DNA from: an uncultured Clostridia bacterium
GTDB lineage: Bacteria; Bacillota; Clostridia; Christensenellales; CAG-917
Assembly: GCA_934277645.1 (NCBI GenBank)
Contig: CAKQUX010000001.1
Span: forward strand, 386,110-450,109
Direction: 5' to 3'
DNA: 64,000 bases
Position numbers and translations under genes: made by a program. The notes below the pieces were generated by a model. The model saw only the letters and a program-made list of their open reading frames with translations. It had not been told where the DNA came from and did not search any database. How positions within the stretch are numbered: position 1 is the first letter of the stretch; each line of letters begins with the position of its first letter. Below are positions 26,753 to 64,000 of this stretch, in pieces.

Positions 26753-26813
26753 TTTTAAATCTATCAAAACGAATTTTAAAGTTCGGTTATTTAGATTGTT
26801 AAAGACCAAAATT

Positions 26814-26843
26814 AAAAGGCTAACGAAAATTCGTTAGCCTTTT
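26814..26843. terminator. Rho-independent terminator (bidirectional)
   Basis: The hairpin ggctaacga-aaat-tcgttagcc has flanking A- and T-runs. It sits between convergent fba and the membrane-protein gene. Confidence 0.7.
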
Positions 26844-26943
26844 AGATTGCTTTTCAGATTACTTTGAATGATAAATTTATTTCCGCATTTTAGCGTCGGT
26901 TGTTAAACGTCCTATAAAGTGTTTATTTAATTACACTTAAAAA

Positions 26944-27771: not shown

Positions 27772-27844
27772 AAAACCTCCTCTTGCCAAGAAAAGTATAT
27801 ATATTTTATTGCTTAAAGTCAAACAAATAGTTATAATATTCCGT

Positions 27845-28606: not shown

Positions 28607-28661
28607 CGATGCATTAAGCAAAACAAGCAGCGATAAATCGTTATATCATTCGTTATATTAT

Positions 28662-28689
28662 AAAAAAAGAGCCGTTTCGGCTCTTTTTA
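28662..28689. terminator. Bidirectional rho-independent terminator
   Basis: The hairpin agagccg-ttt-cggctct has flanking A- and T-runs. It sits between convergent ttcA and the M23 peptidase gene. Confidence 0.7.
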
Positions 28690-28702
28690 TAATACGGATT
28701 TT

Positions 28703-29389
28703 TTATTTTTCGTTAAGCACTAAAACCTCGATCGGGTTGATAAGCTCGCCGTTTTTATACACTTCGAAATGAAGATGATTGCCGTCAAGGCACTCGGTGC
28801 CCATACTGTCCGACATAGTTCCGATAACGTCGCCGCCCTTCACGGTGTCGCCGACCTTAATCGGGGTTTCTGCCGCAAGCGAACAGTATTTCGTGACAAT
28901 GCCGTCTTCGTGTTCTAAAGCGACGTAGTAGCCGTCAAGCATATTATAATCGATTTCTTTTACAACACCGTTTGCCGAAGCGTAAACGTTGTTATCGGTT
29001 TCGCTCTTAAAATCCATAGCTTCGTGTGTTTGATATTTGTTAAGCGATTGATTGTAGAACACCGACGATGCCGAATATTCGTTTGTAACCGAGCCGTTTA
29101 CAGGAACGTTGAATACCGTTTTTTGTTTTTCAGGCTCTTTGTCCGGTTCGCTAGGAGTTGGTTTATCTTGCTCGCCGTCGCTTGGTTTATCTTGTTCGCC
29201 GCCGCCTATCGTCGTTTTAGAATCGTCCGTGATACTGATATTCGTATCTTGTCCTTTCTTGCTTTGCGATACGGCGACGCCGACCATCGTGGCGACTGCG
29301 CCTATACACAAAACAATCAGGAAATAGTAGCCGTTCTTTTTAAAGAACGCTTTAACTTTTGCCCACTTTTCTGAATTGTTTTTTTCCAT
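28703..29389 (-). CDS. M23 (LytM-type) peptidoglycan endopeptidase with N-terminal membrane anchor
   Basis: It has a TM helix (YYFLIVLCIGAVATMVGVAV), a Pro/Asp/Glu/Lys linker and the M23 motifs HEAMDF and GNHLHFEV. The start at 29389 is preceded by GGAGG. Confidence 0.85.
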   Translation of the reverse strand: MEKNNSEKWAKVKAFFKKNGYYFLIVLCIGAVATMVGVAVSQSKKGQDTNISITDDSKTTIGGGEQDKPSDGEQDKPTPSEPDKEPEKQKTVFNVPVNGSVTNEYSASSVFYNQSLNKYQTHEAMDFKSETDNNVYASANGVVKEIDYNMLDGYYVALEHEDGIVTKYCSLAAETPIKVGDTVKGGDVIGTMSDSMGTECLDGNHLHFEVYKNGELINPIEVLVLNEK

Positions 29390-29537
29390 AAAACCTCCGC
29401 TGTGGTGATTATTGACAGCGGAAAATTTTTTATACACGATAAATTAAATTTTTTGTACTCTTGTATGCTAGCCCACGACTGCGATTCTATGAACCGTCTG
29501 CATAACATTGTTTTAACAATCGTTTTGCAAGAACCTT

Positions 29538-29570
29538 ATAAAAATAAAGGAACGCTGTTCGGCGTTCCTT
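29538..29570 (-). terminator. Rho-independent terminator after the SSS transporter gene
   Basis: On the minus strand aaggaacgc-cgaaca-gcgttcctt is followed by TATTTTTAT. Confidence 0.6.
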
Positions 29571-29654
29571 AGCTACTACTCGATAAATCAAAATTTATAA
29601 ATTTAATTTTCCGAGAAACTTAATTCGATTATTCTTTATCTTAGTTTTGATATG

Positions 29655-38260: not shown

Positions 38261-38287
38261 TTACTCGGTTGCCGTTTGGCAATCGAT

Positions 38288-50200: not shown

Positions 50201-53200
50201 GATTGCAAGGTCGAGGTTGTGAAGTTTAATCATATCGGTAATCTTTCCGCCGTTAAACAAGCTCATCGGATCAATATCGACGTCGAGATTGAGAGCAATC
50301 GAATATCCGAACGTATTGTTGAGCTTCTTACCAGGTTCGCTGATTGTGAGAGCCGTGGTAAGTTCGCCGAATACCGAGTAAAGAACTTTGCTGAGTTCGG
50401 TTGATGAATAGTCGCCGCTAAGGCTGAACGTTCCGCCCAAAACCATCGAAACAGACGAGATTTCGGTTACGTTCATATATCTGAGTTCGTCGTAGCGGTC
50501 AAATGCGACAATAGCGTTTGTCTTAACGTCATAGTACGCAAGGCAGAAATACTCGTCGCCTGCTTTTGCATAAAGCGAAGTGTTTTCGGTTGCCGTTCCG
50601 CTAAATGCGCTGAACTCACCACTTTCGTCCATTGTGTACCAAGCGATAGCCGTGTCGAGAATAAACGTCTTGACAAGGTCTGCTCCGCTCTTTGTGACAA
50701 TGACTTTACCGACTTTGGTCGTAAGGTTTTCGTTGATTTCGCCCTCACCCGTGCCGAGTTTCTTGCCGCTCAAATTGACGCTCGAAATGCGAACTTCAAG
50801 TTCGTCACCGACTTTAAGGCCTTCGCTGAGTTCGCCGTAAACGGCTTTGTTGTAATATGCGAAAGTTCCGTCAGCCGTCTTTACGTAAAGCGGCGAGTTG
50901 AAGTAGTCGTTCAAAATGTCGTTGTAAACGTATTCGCCTGCGTCGTAGCCATAGAACTTGTCAGCCGTAATCATTGACGTGAGCGAGTTTTCACGAACGT
51001 ACTTGTTTCTGATGACGTAGCCGTTTTCGTCATAGTGTCTGACGAAGTCGAATCTGAGCCATCTGTAATAGCTTACTTTGCTTGTGAGCGTGCTGTCCGT
51101 TATTTGCAATGCGCCCGTGCCGTAATAGTTAAATCCGACAGTTTCGGTAAGTTTGCCTGCGCTAAGGTCGGCAGCACTATAAAGTCTGATGAAGAACTCT
51201 TGTTTTGTCTTATCAGATCTTGTGTATTCGATAAGAAGCCATTCGCCGTCGTCGTCTTGCGTCGCAACGTTTGCGTTTGCGGTGTATACGGCTTGATATT
51301 TGTCGTATGCGCAAATCTTGCCGTCGAAGCGGTTTGCGATAAGGCTTGTTGCGTCGCCGAACGAACCGCTGATCGAATAACGGTTTGCATTTCTGATTGC
51401 AACTTTATATCCGCTTGCCGAACCGTCGGCAATCGTCATTTGAATGGTTGCGTGGCTTACGCCTTGTTCGCTGTCGACGTCTTCACCGAAGCTCTTTCCG
51501 TTTACGCTAAGGCTGCTAAGCTCGCCTGCGTTAAGAGCCATCGTTCCGAAGTTGTCGATAATATCATACGTCATCGACGTCGGGAACGTGTCTGCGCCGT
51601 TCGATGTGTACGAATACTTAGTAAAGCTAAGTTTTGGCGACTGAATGTCAACGCCGATATAGTTGTCGAATACGTAAAGGAGCAATTCGACAAGCGGTGC
51701 CAAAGCGTCGTCGTCAACCGTGACCGTGAACAAGCGTCTTGCGCCGATTTCGGTCTTGAAGTCGTCGATGCTGTCGTACGTCTTGGTTTGTCCGTTGCAA
51801 GTAATGACGTAGCTCGAACCTACTTTTACGATATGTACTCTGTAAATATCGTAGGTAAGATAATCTTCGCCTGCAACGTTGGATACGTACTCTGCGTCCG
51901 CAACGGTGCTCTTTAACGTGAGATACGATTGTCCGATTGTGGCGAGATATTCGTTAAGTTTTCCACCGCTATAGAAGACGTTGTCGAAATAATCGAGCAA
52001 CTCTTGTCCGCCCGTCGGAATTTGATTGTTAGTTCCTGCTGTGATATGTGCCTTTTCTGCCGCCGTAAACTTGACAAGCTGAGTGTTCTTGTCAATAAAT
52101 ACGTAGTTACCCGTGTCGCCCGTTCTAGGAAGGACGGCATAAACAAGACGACTTTCATCGGTTACGAATTGTTCGTAAGTAATTTGCGCTCCGAACTCAT
52201 CCGTCAAAATTTCCGTCGGATTTGTCGAAAGTCTGATGCCTCCGTTTACGTCGGTATTGCCGCTTGCATCAAGGTCGGTGTTAGCGTCGTTTGTAACGAG
52301 CGAGTCAAACCTATACCTCTTTGCGTCAGTGTTAATTCTAAGATACGAACGCTTGTTGAAGTCAAAGTCAAACGAGAATGACGTATCTTCACCCGTTACC
52401 AAGTCTGCAATGACGTTGAGGTAATTTGCGTGAAGCATAATCGAAATATAGTTCGACGTAACTTGCATGCCGTAAAGGAACGATCTGATATATTCGCAAA
52501 TGTTGTCAGGCAACAACGGAAGCGAAATCTTTGAACCTGTATTGTCATCCGTGTTATCGTCGCCGGTGTTATCGCCACCCGTCGTATCGTCCGTGGTGCT
52601 TGCTTCGCTGTTCTTATCCTTATTGAAGAGTTTGTTTCCAATCTCCGTAAGAGTGAAGCTGTCAACGGTGTAAGCCGCAAGACCCAATCCCGTCAAGTCG
52701 ATGTTAAGACCGCCAGGAACAAAGCTGTAAACGCCGTATTCGTTTTGATAGTAGTTTACAGGGTCATAGCTGTAACGATCTGCGCTGTAACGGTCGGTGT
52801 CGCTAAGGTCGAGTTTCTTGCCTTCCGCCGCATATTGTCTTTCAAGTTCTTTTACGTTGAAGAACTCTTTGTTCAATATGTCGTAAGCATAATCGCCGTA
52901 CGGGTTGACGAAATAGTGCGACCATTTGTCTTTGCTTGCCGTGTTACCAAGTTTTTCGTGGTCGACGACAGCCATATACTTGCCGTTTGCGTCGGTGTAA
53001 TATCCCTTATAGTTCTTGCTGTAACGAATGCCTGAGTAAGAATCGACGTTGTCCTTATACGGGAAGTACTTGATAAGTCCGTATTCTGCGCCCGTTCCCG
53101 AAATGTATTGTTTTTCGATATCGTCATAGCGGTAGCGAACAAGTTCGGTGCCTTCGGCGTTCCATTCGTACTTATCTTTGTTTGCTTCGTCGTATTCGTC

Positions 53201-56200
53201 AACCTTTACGTACTCGTTGTATCCGTCAATCGTGACGTAATCGCAAACGAGCGCATAGTTTCCGCCTGCGAAATACATTCTGACAAGAGTGTTTTCCTCG
53301 GTGGTTACGGTTTGACCTGTCGATGCGTCATAGCTGCTACCCTGCGTTACGATTTTGAATTCTGCGTTTACAAGGCTCAAAATCTTGACTATGTCAATTC
53401 CGCCACCCTTAAGCGTATCGAACAATAATTGAAGATCAAGGTCGCCCTCGCGCCACGTCGGTTTCTTTTCGCTATCTTCCGTCGTGCCTGCAATCTCTTT
53501 GTCAAGAATTGTCTTTCTGATAGAGTTGATGATAGAAGCGAGCTTGATGTCTATCTTCATATCGAGATAGGTCTTTCTGTTAAGGTAGTCGCCCGTTTCG
53601 TCCATAACCTTAATTATACCTTCAAGGTCTGCAAGTGACTCGTCTTGGAAGAAGAGTTGTACCCATTCCGACAAATCGAGGTCACCGCCTGCAAGGTAAG
53701 TCGTAACGTCGATTCTCTCTTCGATAACGACGTTTTCGATTTCCGAGTAAAGCGTGTAGTCTTTAATCGCGTCGTCGGTAAGCGGTCTGGTACGGTCGGT
53801 TTGCGCAAATTTAAGGCTTACGTTGTTGATACCGAGGCTGAAGTTAACCTCTTTTGCGTAAGTGTCATAGTTTGCGCTTTCACCTTCCACAAGGATATAG
53901 TAAATCGTCTTTGCGCCGTCTTTCTCAGCAGCCTGCAATGCGGCGTTAAACTCCGTAGTGCCGTAGGCGTACGGTGTAAATCTGCTACCCGTCGTAATTG
54001 CGGTGCCTCTGACGAAAATATTGTTTGCGCTGTCGAATGCCCAGATTCCGTCAGGGTCTTCGATGAAGAGCATAAGTTTTTCCGCTACGCCGTCCTTTTT
54101 AAGTCCGTTCGCTTCTTGAGCCGCTTCGATTGCGGTTTTTGCTTCGTCAGTAAGGTTGTTTTCGCCGTCAAAGAGATTTTCAATCTTAACTTGAACGTAC
54201 TTGCTGCCTGCAGGCATTCTGAACGAAATTTCTGCGCCGATTTCGGTCGCTTCGAGATCGTCGAGCGAAACTTTAACGTCGGCAAATCCGCTGTAATCGA
54301 TTCCTTCATAGATGAAATCTTTAAGCGATACGTCGCCGAATTTGATAAGTCCCAATGCAAAATCGATAAGTTGTTTACCTATTCTGACTGAGAAGTGTTT
54401 GTTTGAAAGCAAAATTTGGAGTGCCACGTTGTAGTCAACGTCTGCGCCGCCTGCTTCATTTTGAATTTGTTCCGAATTGTAAACGTCGTCGCCGAATATC
54501 TTAACGAGCAAATCGTTAAGCGTGTCGGTGATAAAGTCAAGTTCGTTGATAACCATCTTAGGCAGACCGAGTTTTTCTGCATCTATATACAACGAGCCGT
54601 CTTGATAGTAAACACCAATGAATACTTCTTCGACGTCGACAGCCGAAATGTCGATAAGCTCGGCTTTGAGTTCCGACTTGGAAAGGTCGCTGAAATCGAG
54701 AAGTGCGCTTACGCTCATTCTGAAATCCATCTTGGTTACGCCTGCGGTATATTCAGGAACTTCTACGACAACTCCGCTTATGTCACCGACGATTCCGCTG
54801 AATACCCTACCAAGGTCAACCGTTCCGGCAGTAAACTCGCCGTGCAATCTGACGTCAACGCTTGCGCCGACGGTGGATTTGGTGAACGGAATAGCTTCGT
54901 TGATATCCTTCGGAAGAAGCGATGCGGTCGAACCGAATCCGATGTTAAGTCCGCCAATGCTTACGCCGAAGCCGAACGTACCCGCCTTAACTCCGAGCGT
55001 GATTCCGAAATCGGAAATCGAAGTATACTTCGTCGACTTACGCATATATTCGCTTTGCGTAATATCGAACGTGTAGCTTCCGTAATTCTTGCCATCGTCG
55101 TTACGCAAATCGTACTTGCTACCCTTTACAGAGTAGTCGAGAACGTATTTGACACGCGCGCTGTAACTTGCTTTTTGTTGCGCTGTAAGGCTCGACCAAA
55201 GAACGTAGCCCTCGGTTGTGTTGACCCACCAGTAGTTTTCCATAAACGCACTGCGGTCTGCGCTGCCGATAAGCTCCGAAAGGTACTTGTCTGCCGTAAG
55301 TTTATAATCTTTAAATTCGTCGTACGCAACGTATGCAGGATACGTATAGGTTTCGTCTGCATCGTAAGTGAATACGTCCAAAATCGCAACGTAACGCATG
55401 CTCGAAAGAGCCGCTTTAAGTTCGTCGGTAAGTACGCTGTAAATGACGTACTTTTCGCCGCCTATTTCTACTGCGATATTTTCATATGCGGCAAGTTTAT
55501 CTTCATTGCCTTTATATTTAACGTATGTGCCGACAATCTTTTCTTCATAGTTTTGCTTTCCGACGTTTGCTTCAGCTTCCGTCTTAACAATGACGTTGTT
55601 TACGGCTTTGCTGTAGCGGTGGTTGTGCTTACTGCTGTCATACGTTTCGTATCTGACCGTGCCGTCGGTATTTGTCGTCTTTCCGTAGTAGCCGTTGATA
55701 TCTTGAACGTAAAGTTCGTCGGCGTGAGCTACAAGATAGCTGAACAAATAGTAGTCCGAAACTTTTTGATAACGAGTGCTCGAAGCAAATTGTTCTTTCT
55801 TTTCGGCAGTAAGGTTATCGTAAAGTACGAAACTTCCGATTGCTCCGTAGTTAGCTTGTTCGGTTTCGTTCAAAGCGTCGTATGCCGATTTCGTAATCGT
55901 GTTTCTTACGCCGCTTGCGTTGCTGCTTGCAAGTTCGACGTAATATTCAACGTTTGAATTGTCGAAGATATAGTCGCCGCTTTCGTATTCACGGAAGTAA
56001 GTGATTTCGGTATATCTTTCTTCGTATGGCAAAACCAACGAGTATTCAGCGGCAACCCACTTGTACTCGCCCTTTTCGGCTTTATAGTATCCCTTGAAGA
56101 AGAAATACTTATAGTCGCTGTCTGCGCCGGAAATCTTGTAAACTTCTTCGTTTGCTTGAAGTTTTGCAACGGTGTCGAAATCGGAAACTTTAACTTTTTG

Positions 56201-59200
56201 TCCGATATCGGTCAAGTTGACGCACTTGACGTTTTCGACGTTCGCCGCAGTACGTTGCGAGATAGGGATTACAGTCGAACCCGTTTCGTCGCTGTACCAG
56301 ATATAGTTGTTAAGGTTGTAAACAACGTTGTTGTAGCTGAAATAGAATACGTCGGTGTTGTTTACGTCCGTTTCCGCATTCTTAGATGCGATAGACGCAT
56401 TTGCAAAGTAGCCGTAGCCGTATCTATCGACGCTCCAATCCGATTCGATTCCGTCACTTCCGACGTAAATCGCTCTGAATGCTTGGTTGCTTACAACGTC
56501 GAACTTGTCTGCTTTTGCATACAAGCCCGTGTCGTTTTGATGCCAACCGTAGTTGTACGTTTGGACGCTCGAAAGGTCAACGGCCGTTCCGTCGATGTCA
56601 ATCGAAACTACGCCGTTTGCTCCCATAACGTAATTTGTCAAGTCATAATACGTATCGCCTATCTTGACGTATCTACCGATGGTATTGGTCAAGTTGAGCG
56701 CAACGTATTCCGAACCTATTGCAACGTATTTGCCCGTATCAGCGTTAGACACCGTGCCGCTTTCGTCATTATAACGGCTGTGAGTCGAAACGTTGTAATA
56801 CAATCCGTCGCTACCCTTGACGATGAAATACAAGTTTGCAGGAATAATTGCAGACGCAACGTAATCGACTTCTTTTTCAAGTCCTGTGCCGTATGCGTAA
56901 TAGCCCATCGTATAACGCAAGTTTTTGTTCTCGTCTTTTAAGAGATCTTCGCTCCAATCGAGTTTTTCGTAATAGAGACCGCCCGAAACTTTAAATTCGC
57001 CGTTTTCGTTTTCATAGTAGACGTTGGTATCGATTGCGTGACGCTTGTAATACTTAAATTCGCTTGCAAGGTAAATGAGCGTAGCGTCACCGTTTACGAT
57101 ATAGTAATCGCCGTTCGTATCTTCCACGCCTTCGACATTGCAAATTGCAATCGACGAAATCATAACGTATTTATTGTTAGCTTTGTCATAAGCGTAATTG
57201 TTTGTAGCGTTCGTAAGAACGTCAATCATATCGCTTATTTCTTCATAACTACGACTAAAGCGTTGATCTTTGCAAATCTCCGAATAATCGATAAGTTCGT
57301 GGCTGAACTTGCCCTTGTCAAGGCTAAGCGACAAGTTGAGCACGTCGAATATATCTCCGATATCGCCGAGCGTCGGCATAATCATCGAAAGGATAACCGC
57401 AAAGAAGCTCTTTGTCAAAACAAGTTGAATTGCAGGGTCCGAGATGATAAGTTCCAAAACAGCTTGGTTTGCCGCATCCGACGAAACGTCGCTCGTCAAT
57501 GCTTCAGTTCTGTCTTTGATGCCGCCCGAAATTTCATCCGCTTTGTCAACGACGTCGCTTATGGCGTCGTCTGCTTTATCGATGCCCTTAATGACGTTTT
57601 CGATAACGCTTACGATATGCGGAATGTAAGCTGCAGGAGCGCCTGCAAAAAGTTTTCTTCCGTCAAGATACAACGTATCCTGAGCAAGATACAAACCGCC
57701 TTTAACGATAGCGTTTCCTTCCGAATCGTATTTATAATTTCCGTAAGTGTCGAGTTCCAAAAGTTCAAGCGAAATTTCAAGAGAACGAAGTTCGCTCTTG
57801 TTGAGGAAGTCGAGAATGCTGTATTGTTTCTTATACGTTCCGTTTTCTTTATCTTCTTCGTAGGTCGTTTCGATAACCTTACCGTTTTCATCGACTTTTT
57901 CGACCTTCGAATACTTCGTGCCTTTATACTTTCTGCCCTCGTTTTCTGCTCTTGCTTCCCAATCGCTGATAAGTTCATAGCCGTTTGCCGTGAAGTAATC
58001 AAGGAACAAATCGCCAAGGTTGAAGTTTGCGCCGATTCTTACGCCGACCGCGCTATAGAATTGTTGGTCAGCCATAAGCGAAACGACCATGTCTCCGAAG
58101 TACTGAGCAAGCATATCCGAAGAATTGAGGAATTGCGACAAGTCGTAGCTTGCACTGCCGTCTGCGCTTACGTAAAGTTTGCCGTCAACCGAAAGGTTGT
58201 AGGTTTGCGACGTGAATTTCGTAAGGTCTGCAAAGTCGTTAGGCGTTACTCCGACTCCGAGAATAGAAGTCGTTGCGCCGATATCGATTGTAAATGCGGC
58301 GGCAAGAGCAAGTTTAAGTTTCAAGCCGTCGGCAGTTTGCATTCCGACCGAAATAGACGGTTTGCCGTCGAAATCGTCGTCTGCGAGTTTAAGGAAAAGT
58401 CCGCTCGTGCTTTCGTCAAGATTGAATCTGCTAAGGTTTACCGAATTGTCACTGAACAATGCGATGACCGCTTGAAGCATATCGCTGTTGAACATAATGT
58501 CGAACGAATCGAAAGTTTTGAGCGTTGCGCCGCTTCTGAGTTTTGCCTTTACGACTACCGTCTTTACGATAGCATTCAAAACCGCGGCAACAAGTTTTGT
58601 GCCTTTAAGTTGTTCTTTTTCTTCGTCGGTCGTGCCGGCTTCTTCTTTATTGCCACCGCCGATCATATCGAAGATAAAGTCTGCGCTGATCTTTGCTCTC
58701 GGTCCGTCAATTCCTTTAAGGTCTAAAAGCAAATAGTTGTCTACAAGATAAATACCTACGGTCTTTCCTGCGATAGCTTGACGGTTGTGATCCATAGCGC
58801 AAAGTTCGATACCGAATTCGCACGCTTTAAGAAGTTGATCGATGGAGAAGTTTCCAAGGAAATCTTTAAGCTCCATACCGCCGTCGATAACGCTGTAAAT
58901 TCCGAGTTTTTGAAGGTCGATGTTACCTTTAAGAGTAAGGATAAGCGTCGTGTCAACCATATCGTCAACGTAGAACTTGAACGCAATAGTTTTAAGCAAA
59001 TCTTTAAGCGAAACTTTGTTTGCGCCCGAACCGAACGAGAAACCTTTTATAAGGTTGTTTATGAAATCGAGGTTCAAAGTTGCGTCGAGAATTTCTTGGA
59101 ACTCTCTCGGCACTCTTTGATACGTTCCGTTTTCGTCTTGAATGAAGTGTACTCCGTCCGATGCCAACGAGTATCTGTCCGACTTAGGAACACTGCCCGA

Positions 59201-62200
59201 TGCGATTTGAGTTTGCGTCATCTTGACAAAAGTTGCGTCAAGCGAGTAGTTGAAATAGAAATCGAACGCAAACGTGATACACGGATTGTCGTCGAAGTTG
59301 TTGAGTGTCGAATTGCCGTTTTTGTCGACACCTGAAGTAAGACGCGTGATAGCGTCACTGAGTTTTTCGCCTACGCTTTGCAATCTTTCATAGGTATCGA
59401 GCAACGAGATAGGCAATTTTTCTCCGCCTATTTCGACGTAGTAATTTGCCCAAGGATTGGTTTCGCCTGCTTTTACAGGGTCACCTGTGAGCGGATTAAA
59501 CGTGTCGCCGACCTTTTCAAAAACGTTTTCGCGAGTAAGTTTATAGTAAACGTCCGTGTTCGATTGTCTGACGTAGTAGCCGATAAAGTTATCTACTTCG
59601 TTGAAGTCTATTTCGGCATAACGGTCTTTTGCCGCACCCGTTGCAAGGTATGGTCTTACAATCGAAAGGCTTACCGACAAAATCTTGGAATCGAGTCCGA
59701 CAAGAATTTGCGGGATTGCGGTGTCGATCGTAAATTCGGCAGACAAGCCGAGATCAACAGGATTGCCGTTTTCATCAACCATCTTGCTGAGAATGGTGTC
59801 GATGTCGACTTGTTCGTCTTCCGGCTTTCCGTTGTTAAGAACGAAGTTGATAATTGCTATTATAAGGTTTTGTGCAAGCGTGATAGAAATTTCTTTGCTT
59901 GCAAGAGCGATGACGGTTTCGAGAGCTTCTTTAGCTTTGTCGCCGCCCTCTTCTCCTTCATCCGAAATTTCGGCTTCACCGTCTTGCGTGACCGAAGTCG
60001 TCAATTTCTTGACGAGCCCGTTTATCGTATCGCTGACGATTGTGCCGACGTCGATATTGTTCATAACGAAGTTGTCTTCGCTAAGCGCGCCGAGTTCGAC
60101 GTAAAGGTCGGTGCCTAAAATGTAAACGCCGAACAAAACTTTGCCCGTGGTCTTATCGCGAAGGACGAGATAAAGTTGAGTGTCGTTTTTACTTTCGGTG
60201 TTGATGCTGGCTTCGATTTCGAGAGCCATATCGAGATAAATGTCTTCTTTAATGTCAAGACCGAAGTCAAGAGCAAGGTCGGCAACCAACGCTTTCAAAT
60301 AGCTGTCGATTTTGATAATGCCGTCCTCTTCTTCCTGAGAGTTTTTAAGTTGTCCTTGAATGTCGATAGCAAAACTAAGGCTGAACTGCGACAAGTTTTG
60401 AAGAGCTATGTAGTCGGTTCTGTTTATGTCTTTACCTATCGATTGTCTGTTGAAAGATATTGTAGGTTTGACGATTGACAAGGTTACCTGCAACGGATCG
60501 ACGCCCACAGACAGTTCAAGGTCTTGCGCCGCCGTGTTAAGTTGAACATACGAACGGTCAGGCGTAAGCTCGATCATAGGTTTAAGCGTCTTCGTTCCGT
60601 CAGGATTTACTTGATAAAGCGACGGAATGAATTGTGCAAGCAATACGGCAACGAACTTCGACGAGAAGTTGACAAGAAGCGTATCTTCTTTAAGCGTAAT
60701 CGCGCTAAGTCCCGTGCCGAGAATGACTGCAAGAAGATTGAGCGAATCGTTAGATGCAGTAGTATCCTCACCTTCGCTTCCTACTGCTTCGTCGGCGAGT
60801 TCATAGCACTTGACGTAAAGGACTTTCGACAAACCTGCATAAGTTGCGGTAATTGTGACCGAACCTGCCTTTTTAGCCGTGACGACAACGCCGCCTGCCG
60901 CCGTAACGGTTGCAGTTGCAATGCTTTCGTCTGACGATACTACTTCGACCTTGCCTGTAGGATTGCTGAACGGTACCCACGGTGTTCTCGAAGAGTCGCC
61001 TACTTTGATTTCACGAGAAACGGCGTCTACAACGGTAACTTTGATTTTCTTGGTTACGGTAGCTCCCTTTTCATCGGTATAGGAAACCGTAAGAGCAACT
61101 TCGCCCTTAGCTTTTCCGTTTACTTTGATTCTGTTTCCGCCAACGATTTCGGTAGTGGCAACGGTTTCGTTTGCGCTTTCGACTTTAAGTCCGGCAATGC
61201 TGCCGTCTTCCGCTTTCTTTGCGTCTTCGAATACGTCGTCGGAAATGAAAGTTTCAGCCTCGCCGAGAGCAACGCCCATATCGAAATCGTACTTGGTTTC
61301 AAACATACCCAAAATCTTGCCGATATCGAAACCGTCAAGCATAATGTGAGTATTTTGCCAAATTCCCAAATCTATATCGAGGAAGAGCGTGCTGTAAGGT
61401 TGTCCGAAGTTGTTGTTTCCTTGATATACAAGATACAAGCCCAAAGCCTTCTTGCTCGTAGAAAGTCCGACCTTTCCGTCCCAGATTTCGATTGCGAGAT
61501 CCGAGTGGGTAAGAATATATTCGATATTCATAAGGTTTTTAAGGTCAAACGTCTTTTCCTTAATATTGATTCCCGAAAGGTCGAGTCTCAAAAGAGCCGA
61601 AATCTTAAATCCGAGTTCGTCGCTGATCTGCGCAGGAATTTCAAACGCAAGCATAAGTTGATAAAGCAAACTTTCAAGAGCAGGAGAATCCGTCTTGTAA
61701 AGGCTTTCAATCCAGCTGCCTACGTCCCACTTGCCCGCATCGCTGTGCGAATCGCTTTGATATGCGTATGCGCCGAGCGAACCGCTAAGCTCTAAATAAA
61801 GTCCTTCGAGATTGATTGTTCCGTCGTCGTTAAACAAAGCGACGTTGACGTAACCTTCGCCGATTGCCTTGTCGAGACCTTCGATGTCGATTTGCGAGAA
61901 TTCGACTTTCGGAGCGTTAAGGTTAAGCGAAACGGCGATCATATCTTCATCTTTTTCGTTCTTAATTGCAAGCGAGCCTTTAAGACCGCTGTCGTAGTGC
62001 GTAACCACGCCGTCCACTACCTCGTCGGTATCTTTGTAACGAAGTTCAAGCGATGCCGAGATGCCGGCAAATCCGAGACCGAGTTTATTGAGAACAAGTT
62101 CTGTCAAACCGTCTGCGACTTCGACAAGGATTCTCGAATCGGACATTGCGACCGAAAGAAGAATTGCAAGGTCATAGTTTTTGATATTTCCGTCTTTGTC

Positions 62201-64000
62201 GGTATATTTGGTATCGAAATCGATTGTAGCCGTAGTACCCGCTTCAGGGTTTGCAGGCTTAATCGATTGAAGCCAGTTGTTGCCGAGAATGACTTGCATC
62301 AAAAGTTCAAAGAGATTTACTTCAAGTGCAATCTTTTCAAGTCCCAAGTATTCGACGTCGACGTACATCATTCCGCCGATATAGTAAAGTCCGAGAACGG
62401 TCTTATAGCTTGCTCCGCCGTCAAGCGTGCGTTGCAAGTTGAGCTTGAATTGCGTCTTGTTGTTTGCAAACATCGAACCTGTTTTGACCATCTTTCTGTA
62501 CGTTTCTTCGTCTCTCAAGAATTGGATGAGCGGCGTAAGGTCAGCCGAAAGTTGAAGGTCGTATTTGTATGTAATGTCGATATTTTCTTCAACGACAAGC
62601 GATTTGATTTGGCTGTCGATGACAATTCCCAAAGTGTTGAGAAGTCCGGCAATGCCTTGGTCAAGGTCGACTTGACCTGCCTTGATGTTAAGGTCAAGTT
62701 CGCCGTTCATTCCGACGTAGAAATACGGCGATTCCATAAAGTTTGCGTATCCGCTTTCGCAATACATGCCGTTTGCGTCAACGACGTATCCGATAAGTTT
62801 TCCGTCTTCCGTCGTCTTTCTCGAATATCTCGTTCCGGAGTATGCCGCGCTTTCTTCGTCGCTGAGTCTGCGATACTCAGGAGCTTCCATTCTGTCGATA
62901 GATGCCTTAACCGTAAGGTCGCTTACGGTAAAGTTCATATCCATACGGTTACCTGACGAAAGGTAAAGGTTGACTTTCATTTCGTTGAAGTTGAGTCCGT
63001 CGCCTAAGCTAAGTCTCAAACCGCCGACCATAGAGTCCGTATTGCCGATAATAAGTTTGTCGCCAAGACCTAAAACTTTGAGCAATTCGGAAACAAGGCT
63101 ACCTGCAAGATAAATTTCAAAGTAGTCCGCGCCAAGGTCTGCGCCCGAAATTACAGCCGCGATAATCGCAGGAATGTTGACTGCGGATGTTTCCGCCTCG
63201 GCGGTAGTTTCACCTTCGTTCGATTTATCTTTGATAAAATCGGTAAGGTCGATTTTGACTTTTGCGATGTTATAGAATGATAAATCTAAATATATTACTT
63301 TATTTATATAATAAAGGTCGATGTACGTTTCTCCGCTGACAGCGTTGCTGATGCTGAGATGCACTTCGCTCTTCAAGAAATCTTTAAGATTGATATTTCC
63401 TTCGATGCTGAACACGAATTTATCTTGCGTCGTGTTGTCGAGCTTCATAAGAAGTTGAAGAAGCATCGTCGTTTTTGCGTCGATATCTTTGTACGTAATG
63501 TCGGTGAAATCACCGCTTGCCGTGTAAAGGTCGAATTCGCCTTTAAGCGAAACGTAAATTTCTTCCAGCTTAAACTTGCCGTCGTCGTCTTTCGCAAGGT
63601 CGAGATAGCTCGATTTTTTAGCTTCGACGTTACTCAAAACTTCCGACATTTCTTTGTTGCCTCTCATTGTCGTAAGGCTACCGTAGAAAACGTTTGCACT
63701 GATTCTTGCACTGAAACCGTCAAACGGTTCGGAAAGGCCTACACGCAAAACGAAGTTCGCACCGGTAAGTTCGTCTCTTTCAAGCGAGATAGAAGCGTTG
63801 TCAATAGGAAGTTCCGCCTTAGGGTTGAACATCTTTACGATTTTGTTCAACGTGCTGCTTGTAAGAGCAAGGTTGAAACGTTTAAGGTTGAGCAATCCTT
63901 GTTCGCCCATAACGATTTCGATATTCGAAATGACTTCCGCAATAATCGACGTAAGGTTCGACGTGTCGATAGCCGCCGATGACGCTTCGCTCGTAAGAGT
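38288..64000 (-). CDS. Giant (>8,570 aa) modular, apparently non-enzymatic protein; 5' end outside the window
   Basis: The frame is stop-free over 25,713 nt. The first in-window Met is at 63910, but the 30 upstream in-frame codons (TLTSEASSAAIDTSNLTSIIAEVISNIEIV) are also open. It has its own terminator. Composition and repeat logic are coherent along the whole length. Confidence 0.9.
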   Translation of the reverse strand, partial: TLTSEASSAAIDTSNLTSIIAEVISNIEIVMGEQGLLNLKRFNLALTSSTLNKIVKMFNPKAELPIDNASISLERDELTGANFVLRVGLSEPFDGFSARISANVFYGSLTTMRGNKEMSEVLSNVEAKKSSYLDLAKDDDGKFKLEEIYVSLKGEFDLYTASGDFTDITYKDIDAKTTMLLQLLMKLDNTTQDKFVFSIEGNINLKDFLKSEVHLSISNAVSGETYIDLYYINKVIYLDLSFYNIAKVKIDLTDFIKDKSNEGETTAEAETSAVNIPAIIAAVISGADLGADYFEIYLAGSLVSELLKVLGLGDKLIIGNTDSMVGGLRLSLGDGLNFNEMKVNLYLSSGNRMDMNFTVSDLTVKASIDRMEAPEYRRLSDEESAAYSGTRYSRKTTEDGKLIGYVVDANGMYCESGYANFMESPYFYVGMNGELDLNIKAGQVDLDQGIAGLLNTLGIVIDSQIKSLVVEENIDITYKYDLQLSADLTPLIQFLRDEETYRKMVKTGSMFANNKTQFKLNLQRTLDGGASYKTVLGLYYIGGMMYVDVEYLGLEKIALEVNLFELLMQVILGNNWLQSIKPANPEAGTTATIDFDTKYTDKDGNIKNYDLAILLSVAMSDSRILVEVADGLTELVLNKLGLGFAGISASLELRYKDTDEVVDGVVTHYDSGLKGSLAIKNEKDEDMIAVSLNLNAPKVEFSQIDIEGLDKAIGEGYVNVALFNDDGTINLEGLYLELSGSLGAYAYQSDSHSDAGKWDVGSWIESLYKTDSPALESLLYQLMLAFEIPAQISDELGFKISALLRLDLSGINIKEKTFDLKNLMNIEYILTHSDLAIEIWDGKVGLSTSKKALGLYLVYQGNNNFGQPYSTLFLDIDLGIWQNTHIMLDGFDIGKILGMFETKYDFDMGVALGEAETFISDDVFEDAKKAEDGSIAGLKVESANETVATTEIVGGNRIKVNGKAKGEVALTVSYTDEKGATVTKKIKVTVVDAVSREIKVGDSSRTPWVPFSNPTGKVEVVSSDESIATATVTAAGGVVVTAKKAGSVTITATYAGLSKVLYVKCYELADEAVGSEGEDTTASNDSLNLLAVILGTGLSAITLKEDTLLVNFSSKFVAVLLAQFIPSLYQVNPDGTKTLKPMIELTPDRSYVQLNTAAQDLELSVGVDPLQVTLSIVKPTISFNRQSIGKDINRTDYIALQNLSQFSLSFAIDIQGQLKNSQEEEDGIIKIDSYLKALVADLALDFGLDIKEDIYLDMALEIEASINTESKNDTQLYLVLRDKTTGKVLFGVYILGTDLYVELGALSEDNFVMNNIDVGTIVSDTINGLVKKLTTSVTQDGEAEISDEGEEGGDKAKEALETVIALASKEISITLAQNLIIAIINFVLNNGKPEDEQVDIDTILSKMVDENGNPVDLGLSAEFTIDTAIPQILVGLDSKILSVSLSIVRPYLATGAAKDRYAEIDFNEVDNFIGYYVRQSNTDVYYKLTRENVFEKVGDTFNPLTGDPVKAGETNPWANYYVEIGGEKLPISLLDTYERLQSVGEKLSDAITRLTSGVDKNGNSTLNNFDDNPCITFAFDFYFNYSLDATFVKMTQTQIASGSVPKSDRYSLASDGVHFIQDENGTYQRVPREFQEILDATLNLDFINNLIKGFSFGSGANKVSLKDLLKTIAFKFYVDDMVDTTLILTLKGNIDLQKLGIYSVIDGGMELKDFLGNFSIDQLLKACEFGIELCAMDHNRQAIAGKTVGIYLVDNYLLLDLKGIDGPRAKISADFIFDMIGGGNKEEAGTTDEEKEQLKGTKLVAAVLNAIVKTVVVKAKLRSGATLKTFDSFDIMFNSDMLQAVIALFSDNSVNLSRFNLDESTSGLFLKLADDDFDGKPSISVGMQTADGLKLKLALAAAFTIDIGATTSILGVGVTPNDFADLTKFTSQTYNLSVDGKLYVSADGSASYDLSQFLNSSDMLAQYFGDMVVSLMADQQFYSAVGVRIGANFNLGDLFLDYFTANGYELISDWEARAENEGRKYKGTKYSKVEKVDENGKVIETTYEEDKENGTYKKQYSILDFLNKSELRSLEISLELLELDTYGNYKYDSEGNAIVKGGLYLAQDTLYLDGRKLFAGAPAAYIPHIVSVIENVIKGIDKADDAISDVVDKADEISGGIKDRTEALTSDVSSDAANQAVLELIISDPAIQLVLTKSFFAVILSMIMPTLGDIGDIFDVLNLSLSLDKGKFSHELIDYSEICKDQRFSRSYEEISDMIDVLTNATNNYAYDKANNKYVMISSIAICNVEGVEDTNGDYYIVNGDATLIYLASEFKYYKRHAIDTNVYYENENGEFKVSGGLYYEKLDWSEDLLKDENKNLRYTMGYYAYGTGLEKEVDYVASAIIPANLYFIVKGSDGLYYNVSTHSRYNDESGTVSNADTGKYVAIGSEYVALNLTNTIGRYVKIGDTYYDLTNYVMGANGVVSIDIDGTAVDLSSVQTYNYGWHQNDTGLYAKADKFDVVSNQAFRAIYVGSDGIESDWSVDRYGYGYFANASIASKNAETDVNNTDVFYFSYNNVVYNLNNYIWYSDETGSTVIPISQRTAANVENVKCVNLTDIGQKVKVSDFDTVAKLQANEEVYKISGADSDYKYFFFKGYYKAEKGEYKWVAAEYSLVLPYEERYTEITYFREYESGDYIFDNSNVEYYVELASSNASGVRNTITKSAYDALNETEQANYGAIGSFVLYDNLTAEKKEQFASSTRYQKVSDYYLFSYLVAHADELYVQDINGYYGKTTNTDGTVRYETYDSSKHNHRYSKAVNNVIVKTEAEANVGKQNYEEKIVGTYVKYKGNEDKLAAYENIAVEIGGEKYVIYSVLTDELKAALSSMRYVAILDVFTYDADETYTYPAYVAYDEFKDYKLTADKYLSELIGSADRSAFMENYWWVNTTEGYVLWSSLTAQQKASYSARVKYVLDYSVKGSKYDLRNDDGKNYGSYTFDITQSEYMRKSTKYTSISDFGITLGVKAGTFGFGVSIGGLNIGFGSTASLLPKDINEAIPFTKSTVGASVDVRLHGEFTAGTVDLGRVFSGIVGDISGVVVEVPEYTAGVTKMDFRMSVSALLDFSDLSKSELKAELIDISAVDVEEVFIGVYYQDGSLYIDAEKLGLPKMVINELDFITDTLNDLLVKIFGDDVYNSEQIQNEAGGADVDYNVALQILLSNKHFSVRIGKQLIDFALGLIKFGDVSLKDFIYEGIDYSGFADVKVSLDDLEATEIGAEISFRMPAGSKYVQVKIENLFDGENNLTDEAKTAIEAAQEANGLKKDGVAEKLMLFIEDPDGIWAFDSANNIFVRGTAITTGSRFTPYAYGTTEFNAALQAAEKDGAKTIYYILVEGESANYDTYAKEVNFSLGINNVSLKFAQTDRTRPLTDDAIKDYTLYSEIENVVIEERIDVTTYLAGGDLDLSEWVQLFFQDESLADLEGIIKVMDETGDYLNRKTYLDMKIDIKLASIINSIRKTILDKEIAGTTEDSEKKPTWREGDLDLQLLFDTLKGGGIDIVKILSLVNAEFKIVTQGSSYDASTGQTVTTEENTLVRMYFAGGNYALVCDYVTIDGYNEYVKVDEYDEANKDKYEWNAEGTELVRYRYDDIEKQYISGTGAEYGLIKYFPYKDNVDSYSGIRYSKNYKGYYTDANGKYMAVVDHEKLGNTASKDKWSHYFVNPYGDYAYDILNKEFFNVKELERQYAAEGKKLDLSDTDRYSADRYSYDPVNYYQNEYGVYSFVPGGLNIDLTGLGLAAYTVDSFTLTEIGNKLFNKDKNSEASTTDDTTGGDNTGDDNTDDNTGSKISLPLLPDNICEYIRSFLYGMQVTSNYISIMLHANYLNVIADLVTGEDTSFSFDFDFNKRSYLRINTDAKRYRFDSLVTNDANTDLDASGNTDVNGGIRLSTNPTEILTDEFGAQITYEQFVTDESRLVYAVLPRTGDTGNYVFIDKNTQLVKFTAAEKAHITAGTNNQIPTGGQELLDYFDNVFYSGGKLNEYLATIGQSYLTLKSTVADAEYVSNVAGEDYLTYDIYRVHIVKVGSSYVITCNGQTKTYDSIDDFKTEIGARRLFTVTVDDDALAPLVELLLYVFDNYIGVDIQSPKLSFTKYSYTSNGADTFPTSMTYDIIDNFGTMALNAGELSSLSVNGKSFGEDVDSEQGVSHATIQMTIADGSASGYKVAIRNANRYSISGSFGDATSLIANRFDGKICAYDKYQAVYTANANVATQDDDGEWLLIEYTRSDKTKQEFFIRLYSAADLSAGKLTETVGFNYYGTGALQITDSTLTSKVSYYRWLRFDFVRHYDENGYVIRNKYVRENSLTSMITADKFYGYDAGEYVYNDILNDYFNSPLYVKTADGTFAYYNKAVYGELSEGLKVGDELEVRISSVNLSGKKLGTGEGEINENLTTKVGKVIVTKSGADLVKTFILDTAIAWYTMDESGEFSAFSGTATENTSLYAKAGDEYFCLAYYDVKTNAIVAFDRYDELRYMNVTEISSVSMVLGGTFSLSGDYSSTELSKVLYSVFGELTTALTISEPGKKLNNTFGYSIALNLDVDIDPMSLFNGGKITDMIKLHNLDLAIDIWTTKDDGSRDKQFIGLYYLDGVVYVDLSFFLADGGFFKIDLGADAVEVIVANLLKGNEAGQADGTIRGADRDKAGFYIDFVLDMITASISSKLIGMIVTEITGEETIADMLENLPNMVPYVGMSVAKGEGSTFLGVKIYDTTGETEILDVNFSVFGIDTKHSHMMFGNKAGYYGNAKSITSLTGDLYRKEYLTEDGKLRVNIFDDNSDNAKDLMTNEECRNKFRLIASVDLAKIFSGEMQFADAFDINWGKAELSAKLDVSLEVLAGIINFSEEFGALLDAEVMAYIKSLSEKIEEIGQDNNTYFTATLSAYVDLAKFMNDKLTFVEKLGGAQINLIMTVNSNLLPYDKDPTNGGAAQDINVNVTVLFDEEGKISLYVDFEDLGSRMGLGEAFNKIKFEGLDISGIVNNDKEAVIADEAISSASTFVDGEEGSAGIFGSDILNVLKVMFKEIQVLQGEVRVNFMSTMFDSLLGFLTQNQTLRDMVKLPQIDDGGITLSLNDGFSVGIDLSLAVAGGREYMPKEMWLGESDTTWKGDRYSFAAFDASDLENAGVYGYTNNLFGKATSDTIGTLYVFTVDDKHGNYYLDTTDGGTVYYYDNAGNKQTATGTFRLVTSDLDKSAYTGNYFSLSKLYVQYATYADFKAAYPNSETTEAQFNSGIDKFVATAGTENFTAKTLYIAVLDSTGAYVKPSDFSLAVGLNNIKLEYDIEKSSVSYVENDVTYVATRIYTDGETLGANETHPEGSNYVFMATTNFNALKDMELNLTFEGGISFHAAALDDKGLSNIVDLSGLAGLVFGDDSSLANTNVTVRIKNDMDMEFTIGMYVYLDLKHPETMEAVLTLNKKNKDTGVSERFLSLYVAPSFNANGEYQGHTIYLDAYFLLGNDGRIAISNFDVATMLNGLLGGLLNSSEASTSSLSEAAGLTMHQLAYALIMFKPEYLGVAINTAAINEIVNFYRRADGKEEKEIFSSSAAAEFMLKLATVHNSANEGDTSLTTTILAKMNDSFYASIDIDDLKVDTGAKVAYQFNDDGTVANANLAKGTGKLPNKSELDQYTVVFDIGNKKLMVEKLSLKLSGEVTITSNTSNEEGTFANWLGKFVRNTLGKLLDSDMNKLGSFNFYLPSILSLIMDAELDINLAAMFTSAGTLNMGGIVYSDMKIDVRFGEPLNSQFLSLYYLGSSKLSGSAGSGADTNRDIINSKTGLFNDAFYIDLTAFGLGKVKLSGLVGLLGGNSGKVEAQSSGYAETTDEAKTQATGAIDMGVVSGELLLEETSIGINFNSSFIERIFDMLNVDFGTAGNPPFGDIAISVNFDNGLESATFEMALDNKGTNIGANISGISVKFGEKAGLIDVENLVNELKTGYGALDMGTLSVGGIVQQLIDSMDPTLSIVYSKKTSDSRVVTNVNLFSGWGAGGKSDKAGSTVSITMTKGSKSIDKSATLDRLKLAISAKHPMRSSNYSLEGYIFNGNVALTGIASNFGGLAGAIVGIFDPLNLGSYIGDKSTGKIFTITDILKGNNDYFNYPSNGKFGEIYSTNDKDEEKEYQWMPKINNVIKSLNVQLFGTNKVSWSPYGSKFSASGNSLRYSTVEINFDKDTFNDLLSYLFYMIVSMINNDDFVSRMNDYRSGGNKYTTTKALLTAVENASSSTARRNIVEPYANAMPAAFMPWLISDMGGVAGNICAAAHTEIKEISYLLDSLLPLPYANSSAKALIYIDSLTNTGTGVDGGIKAIELYIDASRSTTTSNGSNYLQLIIQPTTASDNLLSLCEVETVSIPSGQASVPSRINLLDPSTREAQAIYGSAKKSIFLTAEYFTDEKLFPQIANAYFSDGTKDEYTGKSGYDENGGVAIVWDASSVDLTTSHSKTERLIGYVYGYVMNKVVYVVPVYTTNSYSVSSISGLTYKSGKILTKDLVIDMKANDTSKGTAVSNAAFNVTLPENVQITFENGSAYTFSTHYADYAEYGTAGRAAYVEYAKYLKTAFGFTGTVATSASGKDTFTGVTANYPVGKITWNEKNFVYDFAGGVVKVSYTFSWGLSGTYTESVEIPIKNYKVGNVTKFAYANSSGALDYSVDTLQGFDSAKLVSYDVKKGGFVNGTNKFLVTDGQGSSFVDVSKVTAENYTNYAFDLYAYIKSMNRLEGNYAPYEIDGVEQDVESYKLDLSWSLGGQDDCSGLKPLKDAIDALYDQTNKCWNYFKGIDVIVTGYVGGGNSKTFFASEYFSGYPTDTATTKYVAGTVNGVDGYWVYQALKFRIKVAPTAFEKFGKADVQIDPYKYATIDEAAIGNTLSATMDKGNSTKSITYTLGQDMKYNIPSVNAEELTYMGYTGSGKLKLGVTLGTKNYGFQNVSLPITVKKMAAKGTAIAVEDSLNPDWFTNDALKVIDVSFAGNVTHKMSLDWDNMQLYSDSACTKKVDNIFKGGTFYAKVRADKVELVDGKYQVVMGADGITPIASYKGTSQAIKITINATEYGLETLGNNAITFNSAFEAIGNTIDIYRYYTDKDYKSAFDAIFGEAADNGYWGNTDRKVTVKLNKEVLVGGVVTTEIPAYVRHFNIDNLVGKNKKGEFITNFKSDKVTIGVTVGNREFDLTLGVTPYEVSALRFADGSVKVTENAETGEYEYRYDVLSNFTVPTMAFAVCRGNQYEVADFKFNTETSPKAEEYLTAEDGTKYVERLVTLYSGTALEQTLTIKIILENVDKNGEDVDFDFDLAFETDLNGGEASGEALVSAEAQTAAAKTYQFMAFGKFELPNKGTIKVNGENGATYENVPVTWDRLSAPTADEIIAYIRANGGADYDSSKGYPFTRKATMAGIEKSINFVYYYDFEIVKLGGQDFGGTYTLKAADFFKGLPTTASVVVKTASGNKTIDNVTVEWLKANAKDKVAYDENGIENRGEINAWIRLSFNGFTTENSFGEDFISYGYAKEDGELVFTDIPSSLTIESVDKAQILEEAFKKYIDEAYVYDVLGIYDITPDEVTQGFVKKLFDNNFVVDEKNVTIGEGEGAITMDVLATLSYQLPSDVLTAPNKYFGTSQEIVVKIQSEQCVIEKTIKVYFLDRSVKKVANVTDRSLIFDPYRGISEDAFKENLDVLIANEEVKSYVNGEGKVAFDVQKIADRKVNFNANWTNKANILKTVKTSREGFEWPDNMVTLTAESGAVLEVRIPVYLINRTIAEIRLITDGKYDQLKYYEYRTSKQYIFMDDAVLDQMMTVTYDNKTNQISKLEFRNPYTYSTDVFPTTVKVTFSDGQIMTYNIVWSNVPEKADGLTTTKATIKASIVIGSVENNIYNGEFKYDENSVIIVDEFDLDLAIKSFNLTRFNSDVASKSLDTNYNYEFYPYATTSGTAITMNGSQKTVYNPFVDSRDVDGKYTYYANGITAYLDGQWIKTNYVANYIGYKTLTTSGETKITTATVPSDAILYRIDPITRRYESSGSGNFDYIYVYNVAFNLDVTEWDLSDVSYSAVGGTTYAKVKFGNDKIAASYRTPVKIVQSTFVNFDWSTAKFAKTDATANNVFKSSVGIGSGAKFDPWKDEKYTTTNADKYFPNAVTAKFTDGTNEWTQEVSIAWNFNNLEIDMTGGEGHTKVVIGSSNEYDVSKYKFELKELNVTQIVDYIDRTITFNMDNNSSIKSQTGFAGAQSYDSFTKYTGTISNIDPYNYTRPTMPTSLYTISNGVAQTFTESSSTYKLVWDYSAFYPSYVGGETQITAQLTVPSGLKQEIKIKYYVYKMMISKLASTNYTTNVNTTTGKAATAFTVTPFSVNSYTLPTSYTVTFAQQKYDGTSFGTAASTSKSYNYVQTSMPSSFKYEFVSTAKTGYLASIKVGSQQRVTVDVKLAAWTTTMTTSTSLSGTSNSKTYVLTQYSGKPVAYVGYAQVYNKAGNQVVATYNVSISAADEKYYLPKFSGNRKVVYYLQPIFGVMVDKSGRVLTTRVLTSDYKVNGRVVLKAGAEIPNGYGNGSNNGLSTSYITVTSNN
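38291..44923 (-). other. C-terminal array of ~2,200 aa of Ig-like (Big_4-like) units of the giant protein
   Basis: The recurrent pattern is (L/F)P..V.V.F(S/T)DG....(V/I).(V/I).W, for example FPTTVKVTFSDGQIMTYNIVWSNV, FPNAVTAKFTDGTNEWTQEVSIAWNF, ANAYFSDGTKDEY..VAIVWDASS and VPVTWDRLS. Confidence 0.55.
55061..57223 (-). other. Tyr-rich hairpin-like insert region of the giant protein (residues ~2230-2950)
   Basis: It contains many short units such as NGDYYIVNGDATLIY, VYYENENGEFKVSGGLYYEKL, GDTYYDLTNYVMGANGVVSI and KYFFFKGYYKAEKGEYKWV. Confidence 0.6.
60800..61189 (-). other. Two tandem Big_2-type bacterial Ig-like domains inside the giant protein (residues ~908-1037)
   Basis: The two domains read LKVESANETVATTEIVGGNRIKVNGKAKGEVALTVSYTDEKGATVTKKIKVTVV and KVEVVSSDESIATATVTAAGGVVVTAKKAGSVTITATYAGLSKVLYVKC. 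Confidence 0.7.

Follow-up and report, generated by a model that had tools for sequence, protein, structure and literature searches.

The open frame at the edge of a Clostridia sequence window is an internal piece of one 27,357-nt gene for a predicted giant lipoprotein with fourteen modules

How far does a giant open reading frame extend when it is cut by the end of the sequence in hand, and what kind of protein does it encode? The question is raised by a stretch of 64,000 nucleotides from an uncultured Clostridia bacterium (the window, meaning the whole stretch of DNA that was analysed; G000:C1:386110-450109), in which a minus-strand frame with its stop codon at 38288-38290 is open to base 64000, a run of 8,570 codons. 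The initial annotation had held that this frame runs past the window, that the methionine codon at 63910 is almost certainly internal, and that at least one further module, probably several hundred codons, lies upstream. In the genome (1,504,707 bp in 22 contigs, 99.67% complete, 42% G+C), the 90 bases at the edge prove to be an internal piece of one 27,357-nt gene, whose product, hereafter the giant protein, belongs to an undescribed family; it starts with a predicted lipoprotein signal, carries 14 modules, and its most likely role is that of a lipid-anchored surface fibre. Near-identical proteins in public records are annotated solely as 'hypothetical protein'.

The continuation at the edge is in itself an ordinary window-edge effect. 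The 30 codons 5' of ATG 63910 hold no stop and translate to TLTSEASSAAIDTSNLTSIIAEVISNIEIV, exactly the string quoted in the initial annotation, which had advised looking in the adjacent sequence for an upstream stop and a start preceded by a ribosome-binding site. Both are there. Beyond the edge the frame is open for 556 more codons, giving 9,126 open codons in the genome, bounded by an in-frame TAG at C1:451778-451780 (window-equivalent 65669-65671; a window-equivalent coordinate is the G000:C1 coordinate minus 386109, or the coordinate in locus L002 plus 60000). The start is an ATG located 548 codons past the edge and 8 codons after this TAG, at C1:451753 (window-equivalent 65644, L002 position 5644), and it is preceded by AAGGGAGAAAGAGT, with the Shine-Dalgarno motif GGGAG and a 7-nt spacer. 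As there are no ATG, GTG or TTG codons between the TAG and this ATG, the N-terminus cannot extend further. The gene occupies G000:C1:424397-451753 on the minus strand, its coding sequence reaches 1,644 bases outside the window, and an open frame of such length cannot have arisen by chance. It encodes 9,118 residues, 548 of them outside the window, with a mass of ~1,002 kDa, an acidic isoelectric point of 4.55 and 22 cysteines (0.24%). The gene model is settled: the frame has a definite start, 14 modules and a predicted lipid anchor, and a full-length residue number is the window residue number plus 548.

Within this model Met 63910 is residue 579, internal as had been supposed: no in-frame stop lies close to 64000, and the 15 nt before the codon (AATATCGAAATCGTT) lack a Shine-Dalgarno motif. 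Two full-length homologues drawn from a collection of 5.8 billion proteins, P0003 (7,544 amino acids, aa) and P0004 (7,528 aa), are ~36% identical to the giant protein and collinear with it from residue 1, and Met579 falls in a block that is conserved in the full-length homologues and the orthologues, opposite K in P0003 and M in P0004. Against the independent, 97%-identical assembly L015, the ratio of nonsynonymous to synonymous differences (pN/pS) amounts to 0.138 over aa 1-548 and 0.115 over aa 579-1100; the values are alike on both sides of the edge, so that coding constraint acts on the off-window stretch just as it does inside the window. The sequence on either side of Met 63910 is under purifying selection.

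The N-terminus, which the initial annotation had proposed to screen for a signal or membrane anchor, reads MKRK-LVLILTVILLAVIVGTI-LTAC over residues 1-25, i.e. a basic n-region, a 17-residue hydrophobic h-region and a lipobox that ends in Cys25. The PROSITE-style rule that we applied asks for positive charge in the n-region, hydrophobicity in the h-region, and a lipobox [LVI][ASTVI][GAS]C with its cysteine at about position 15-35, and all of these are present. The signal peptide is the sole segment of the giant protein with the hydrophobicity of a transmembrane (TM) helix (Kyte-Doolittle 2.99; the next highest value is 1.93), and the genome encodes both Lgt (PF01790, 174 bits, C1:296471-297223) and LspA (PF01252, 105.5 bits, C5:28874-29290). 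By sequence, this is a signal-peptidase-II lipoprotein signal, and the giant protein carries every sequence-level mark of a predicted bacterial lipoprotein. Omp85/BamA and LpxC were looked for in the 99.67%-complete genome and neither was found, and two penicillin-binding proteins are encoded, which marks the host as a monoderm with a wall; a lipoprotein would lie in the outer leaflet of the one membrane it has. The C-terminus (which ends in NGLSTSYITVTSNN before the stop) shows no LPXTG, and a second TM-grade hydrophobic segment is likewise missing, so that neither mark of a sortase anchor was found. A topology with multiple TM segments built from the helices of the repeated units is ruled out, their Kyte-Doolittle values being only 1.6-1.9 vs 2.99 for the signal peptide.

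Relatives start in the same way. All eight of the orthologous frames taken from the genomes of relatives begin with K/R-rich, hydrophobic signals with a [LVF][AVIS][AS]C lipobox, and P0003 and P0004 likewise begin with lipoprotein signals. Among the family proteins found by an exhaustive profile search, 18 reach 6,000 aa or more, and 17 of these satisfy the lipoprotein rule. Those family proteins that fail it are fragments called from internal Met codons, the very artefact that the initial annotation had suspected at Met 63910. Many family entries in databases (P0006, P0008, P0009, P0014, P0030, P0034 and others) are fragments, with misannotated starts that include internal Met codons, a start within the signal peptide (P0008) and an over-extension into the leader (P0006); the case illustrates how fragments of giant genes acquire false internal Met starts in databases.

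The body of the giant protein is a module array, which we delineated by piecewise BLAST and iterated hidden Markov models (HMMs). A core HMM, seeded only with the giant protein's own 'hGhYYh...hYhD' regions and converged after four rounds, finds 14 cores of ~180 residues in the giant protein, and the same number in P0003 and in P0004. In the giant protein, modules 1-7 have their cores at aa 34-200, 311-493, 669-838, 955-1160, 1255-1489, 1734-1914 and 2171-2362, and modules 8-14 at aa 2460-2736, 3574-3752, 3952-4074, 5045-5233, 5380-5594 (weak), 5888-6086 and 6195-6412; the first three score E-values of 3e-28, 2e-33 and 9.7e-33, respectively. A module is ~290 residues long and consists of a ~180-aa core that ends in G-h-Y-Y-x(3-6)-h-Y-h-D, preceded by an element of ~85 aa, and family arrays hold 11-14 such modules behind the lipobox. 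Successive cores are separated by an acidic Ser/Thr/Ala/Glu linker, after which comes the ~85-residue element, with a hydrophobic helix followed by a strand-strand-helix pattern.

It is this junction that the window edge cuts. The initial annotation had likened the edge string to a recurring inter-module element, citing its own residues ~5481-5529, and the likeness is borne out: those residues are aa 6061-6109 of the full-length protein, the element between modules 13 and 14, and an element HMM built from 11 copies, with the copy at the window edge left out, gives aa 552-622 as its best non-seed match (independent E-value, iE, 0.04). The same model matches the orthologous sites of P0003 (iE 0.019) and P0004 (iE 1e-4), finding the element after nearly every core of both proteins, and the edge string aligns with a conserved A.AA.DG...LI..IL.NI block in 8 orthologues and in P0003/P0004. 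By these alignments, the edge string comprises the final 14 residues of linker 2 and then the predicted first helix of unit 3. The initial annotation had placed the edge in the middle of another module; its expectation of further module sequence stood, since two modules have their cores entirely outside the window, and its position did not, as the boundary falls almost exactly between units 2 and 3. The features are as follows, in window or window-equivalent coordinates.

63911..64000, minus strand: codons for aa 549-578, the tail of the acidic/Ser-Thr-Ala linker 2 (TLTSEASSAAIDTS) and the first hydrophobic helix (NLTSIIAEVISNIEIV) of the unit 3 leading element
63908..63910, minus strand: ATG of Met579, internal and no start codon; no Shine-Dalgarno motif, frame open for 578 codons upstream
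63131..63991, minus strand: unit 3 of the module array; leading element aa 552-622, core aa 669-838, signature IDLYYINKVIYLD
38288..64000, minus strand: giant frame within the window, aa 549-9118 and stop; units 3-14, weak Big_2 match, C-terminal Big_4-like region
Window-equivalent 64001-65644, minus strand, off-window: codons 1-548
Window-equivalent 65642-65644 (C1:451751-451753), minus strand, off-window: start ATG
Window-equivalent 65573-65644, minus strand, off-window: predicted signal peptide, aa 1-24
Window-equivalent 65570-65572, minus strand, off-window: lipobox Cys25
Window-equivalent 65045-65545, minus strand: module 1 core, aa 34-200, from the core HMM
Window-equivalent 64166-65098, minus strand, off-window: unit 2, aa 183-493
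Window-equivalent 63992-64165, minus strand: linker 2, which crosses the window edge
Window-equivalent 65652-65656, minus strand, off-window: Shine-Dalgarno motif GGGAG
Window-equivalent 65669-65671, minus strand, off-window: in-frame TAG
Window-equivalent 65748-65776 (L002:5748-5776), minus strand, off-window: promoter TTGACA-17-TAAAAT

The array is old. When 75 module cores of six proteins are placed in one tree, every module of the giant protein is nearest to the same-rank module of P0003, P0011 and P0013, and unit 4 is 51% identical to its orthologue and 13-19% to its paralogues; across modules, paralogous copies are 13-28% identical and orthologous copies ~51%. Same-rank clustering together with such low identity between paralogues means that the array is ancient and position-specific, unlike recently amplified adhesin repeats. 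By these comparisons, the order of the 14 modules is ancestral and has been kept in relatives.

The family is widespread within its own lineage. In a sample of 200 genomes from the same order, 6 of the 7 same-family genomes carry an orthologous frame of 6,397-9,199 codons, and one genome of another family carries an orthologous frame of 9,284 codons; when the N-terminal 1,000 residues (P0002) were searched across the order, the ~190 genomes outside the family contributed only three weak matches. A profile of 12 cores of the giant protein (A4) was run over 1.84 billion representative proteins and yielded only 84 matches at E <= 1e-3 and 17 at E <= 1e-30, most of the full-length ones being 6,500-7,900 aa long with 10-14 matched stretches, and the proteins from this search hold ~1,000 module copies. 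Among 100 genomes sampled from the family, the same profile detected the module in 86, with open frames reaching ~10,465 codons; these include 68 of the 73 high-quality genomes (~93%) and represent 15 of 16 genera. An alignment across 8 genera (A1) contained no stretch of enough conservation for a locus search, and the closer alignment A2 returned same-genus loci only. In genome G000 the giant gene is single-copy. A near-consensus promoter, TTGACA-17-TAAAAT (11/12 matches), lies 132 nt upstream of its ATG, leaving a leader of ~97 nt, and a like promoter, TTGAC[AT]-17/18-TAnAAT, is found 83-132 nt before the ATG in 8 of 9 orthologous loci from different genera (L002, L004, L005, L006, L007, L009, L012 and L018), where the leaders mostly begin GTAT(A)A.

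Known domains are few. Pfam scans of the whole protein gave one match above its cut-off, Big_4 in the C-terminal part (24.9 bits vs 22.1), and a sub-threshold Big_2 match at ~aa 1558-1601 (20.4 bits vs 22.8), both outside the window-edge region. The module itself matched no Pfam family, none recurring among 18 units scanned separately, and sequence and profile searches of the PDB, taken to E <= 10, turned up nothing related to the N-terminal 1,000 residues or the core profile. AlphaFold2 was run on aa 26-860 with 7 alignment rows (mean predicted local distance difference test score, pLDDT, 41.7; predicted template modelling score, pTM, 0.30) and on unit 4 with 18 paralogous and orthologous units (mean pLDDT 50.3, pTM 0.40, with only ~aa 1020-1120 reaching 63-77); very few relatives came out of the word-indexed protein searches, so that these alignments were shallow. 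In both models confidence is too low to name a fold; what is predicted for the units is an abundance of long antiparallel strands and a few helices. In the PDB, Foldseek gave a best E-value of 0.85 and TM-scores <0.2.

Taking this evidence together, gene model included, we consider it probable that the giant protein is a lipid-anchored, 14-module surface fibre of ~1.0 MDa, serving for attachment or as a coat. It would be exported by Sec; Lgt would diacylglycerol-modify Cys25 and LspA would cleave the signal; and the N-terminus would then be tethered in the outer leaflet of the single membrane that the monoderm, wall-bearing host has. The 14 beta-rich modules with their acidic linkers would form a long extender through and past the wall, presenting the C-terminal Ig-like (Big_4-type) array at its distal end, and the outcome would be a lipid-anchored surface fibre used in attachment or as a surface coat.

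Three classes of known proteins invite comparison with this fibre. The giant Gram-positive surface repeat proteins Ebh, SasG/Aap and the serine-rich repeat (SRR) adhesins are likewise of megadalton scale, acidic, Cys-poor and extracytoplasmic, occur in monoderms, contain beta-rich modules in long tandem arrays, and presumably carry a binding region away from the cell. They differ in having a C-terminal LPXTG/sortase or TM anchor, where the giant protein has an N-terminal lipobox, and in being built of named domains (FIVAR-GA, G5-E, SRR), whereas its module matches no Pfam family; its repeats are also ancient and position-specific, not recently homogenised. RTX adhesins of the LapA, SiiE and MpIBP type share the general plan of an N-terminal anchor, a long repeat extender and a ligand-binding region near the distal C-terminus. 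They are, however, type-I-secreted and retained in an outer-membrane pore, with Big/cadherin-like extenders and RTX repeats, none of which was detected in the giant protein (the Pfam scan contained no RTX/HemolysinCabind match), and its host has no outer membrane, unlike the Gram-negative hosts of RTX adhesins. Lipoproteins processed by Lgt and LspA resemble it in the K/R n-region, the 17-residue h-region, the lipobox LTAC with Cys25 and the presence of both enzymes, although typical bacterial lipoproteins have a few hundred residues, which puts a protein of 9,118 residues at the extreme of the class. A recent preprint describes giant genes in Clostridia whose products of 10,000-30,000+ aa are built of RCC1, Listeria-Bacteroides repeat, YG, dockerin and leucine-rich repeat (LRR) units (bioRxiv 10.1101/2023.11.21.568195); these giants are alike in their very large size, their occurrence in mammalian-gut-type Clostridia and their presumed surface or adhesion roles, but the family described here has none of the repeats named there.

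Several points weigh against a fibre for attachment. Lipidation, export and surface exposure are predictions, and the role of the module array as an extender is drawn by analogy, because the AlphaFold2 models reached mean pLDDT values of just 41.7 and 50.3 and Foldseek found nothing. No known ligand-binding domain was identified in the giant protein, apart from the weak Ig-like matches. Conservation throughout nearly the whole family, with the order of the modules fixed, is not what is usually seen in adhesins, which are more often variable and dispensable, and it favours a structural role.

That role is the substance of the alternative that survives best, in which the giant protein would not be an adhesin but would belong to the core structure of the envelope, e.g. 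as a lipid-anchored sheath, a scaffold or a ruler that organises the wall, with a position-specific role for each of its 14 modules. We take it as a serious rival, if an unlikely one. A structural component would fit the presence of the module in nearly all high-quality genomes and in all but one of the genera sampled, the single copy of the gene, the near-consensus and conserved promoter, the divergence of paralogous relative to orthologous modules, and the rank-by-rank module order, which is kept across proteins only ~30-36% identical. Pfam scans of the whole protein and the 18 units, however, revealed no homology to S-layer, SLH or cell-wall-binding domains; a monomeric lipoprotein of 1 MDa would be an unusual building block for a lattice, and the C-terminal Ig-like array resembles a binding end.

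A second alternative, which we judge very improbable, is that the modules join into one uninterrupted conduit, a hydrophobic beta-groove or a barrel, of the AsmA/TamB or bridge-like lipid-transfer type, moving lipids or other hydrophobic cargo outward from the membrane. Its appeal lies in a predicted secondary structure made mainly of long (10-14 residue) antiparallel strands with interspersed hydrophobic helices, one per unit at the Kyte-Doolittle values given above, and in the predicted N-terminal membrane anchor. Yet neither the whole protein nor the 18 units gave an AsmA, TamB or DUF490-type Pfam match at E <= 0.1 or 1, and the PDB offered no sequence or fold match, the fold comparison resting on low-confidence models; the host has no outer membrane to bridge to, and long acidic, probably flexible linkers between the units argue against a continuous groove. 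The last alternative would have translation begin at Met 63910 or at some other codon inside the frame, and would explain the open frame before it as non-coding sequence, as what is left of a pseudogene or as an artefact of assembly. It can point to the ATG itself and to several family database fragments annotated from internal Met codons, but we reject it as having next to no chance of being right, given the lack of a ribosome-binding site before Met 63910, the pN/pS of 0.138 upstream, the collinearity with all relatives of 548 upstream codons that hold two significant modules and a conserved lipoprotein signal, and the presence of the same sequence in the independent assemblies L015 (97%) and L019 (99%).

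The DNA around the gene has features of its own. The 1,181-nt gap upstream of it (L002:5800-6825, minus strand; window-equivalent 65800-66825) contains 42% A on the coding strand, with 53 A-tracts phased at ~11 bp (autocorrelation peaks at 11, 22, 33 and 44; Fourier power 5.5 vs a shuffle maximum of 1.15), and the same-genus orthologous loci L004 and L018 show equal phasing, with A/T tracts; such phased tracts suggest intrinsically curved DNA. Within the leader lies a perfectly alternating purine-pyrimidine run of 34 nt, CACGCGCGCACACGTGCGTACGCGTATATGCGTA (L002:5686-5719, minus strand; window-equivalent 65686-65719), which is Z-DNA-prone and hairpin-capable, with folding z-scores of -3.2 to +0.5; at the same place the run is 28 nt long in a same-genus orthologue and 11-13 nt in other genera. 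An Rfam scan of the leader and upstream region found nothing near threshold. Directly 3' of the stop codon, a hairpin at window 38265-38286 (9-bp stem with 5 G-C pairs, scored on the plus strand only) may be the terminator of the giant gene, and the downstream AEC-transporter gene has an identical hexamer pair, TTGACA-17-TAAAAT, at window 37924-37896. The upstream same-strand neighbours (L002:6825-9306, minus strand) encode a PIG-L-family de-N-acetylase and a GH20 hexosaminidase, which together with an HGSNAT-type acetyltransferase on the opposite strand form a small amino-sugar cluster beside the giant gene. These neighbours, like the AEC-type transporter downstream, give no functional hint for the giant gene, and an operon partner among them was rejected as they are unrelated to it.

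On a bolder view, which we regard as speculative and rather doubtful, the ~290-residue module would be a new fold and the megadalton lipoprotein a lineage-defining envelope organelle in a family of gut Clostridia with reduced genomes of ~1.5 Mb, e.g. a fibre of fixed length with 14 stations, attaching cells to the partner cells or host surfaces on which they depended. Expression would then run through a dedicated control region, composed of the phased A-tract curved DNA, the consensus promoter and the Z-DNA-prone leader, that could handle the torsional stress arising when a 27-kb gene is transcribed and its product enters the membrane during synthesis.

What the finding means for this lineage can be stated more simply. 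A single gene takes up 1.8% of a 1.5-Mb genome, and of the high-quality genomes sampled in this family of gut-type Clostridia ~93% retain it. The giant protein is a good target for structure determination and for learning how small-genome gut anaerobes attach to their surroundings.

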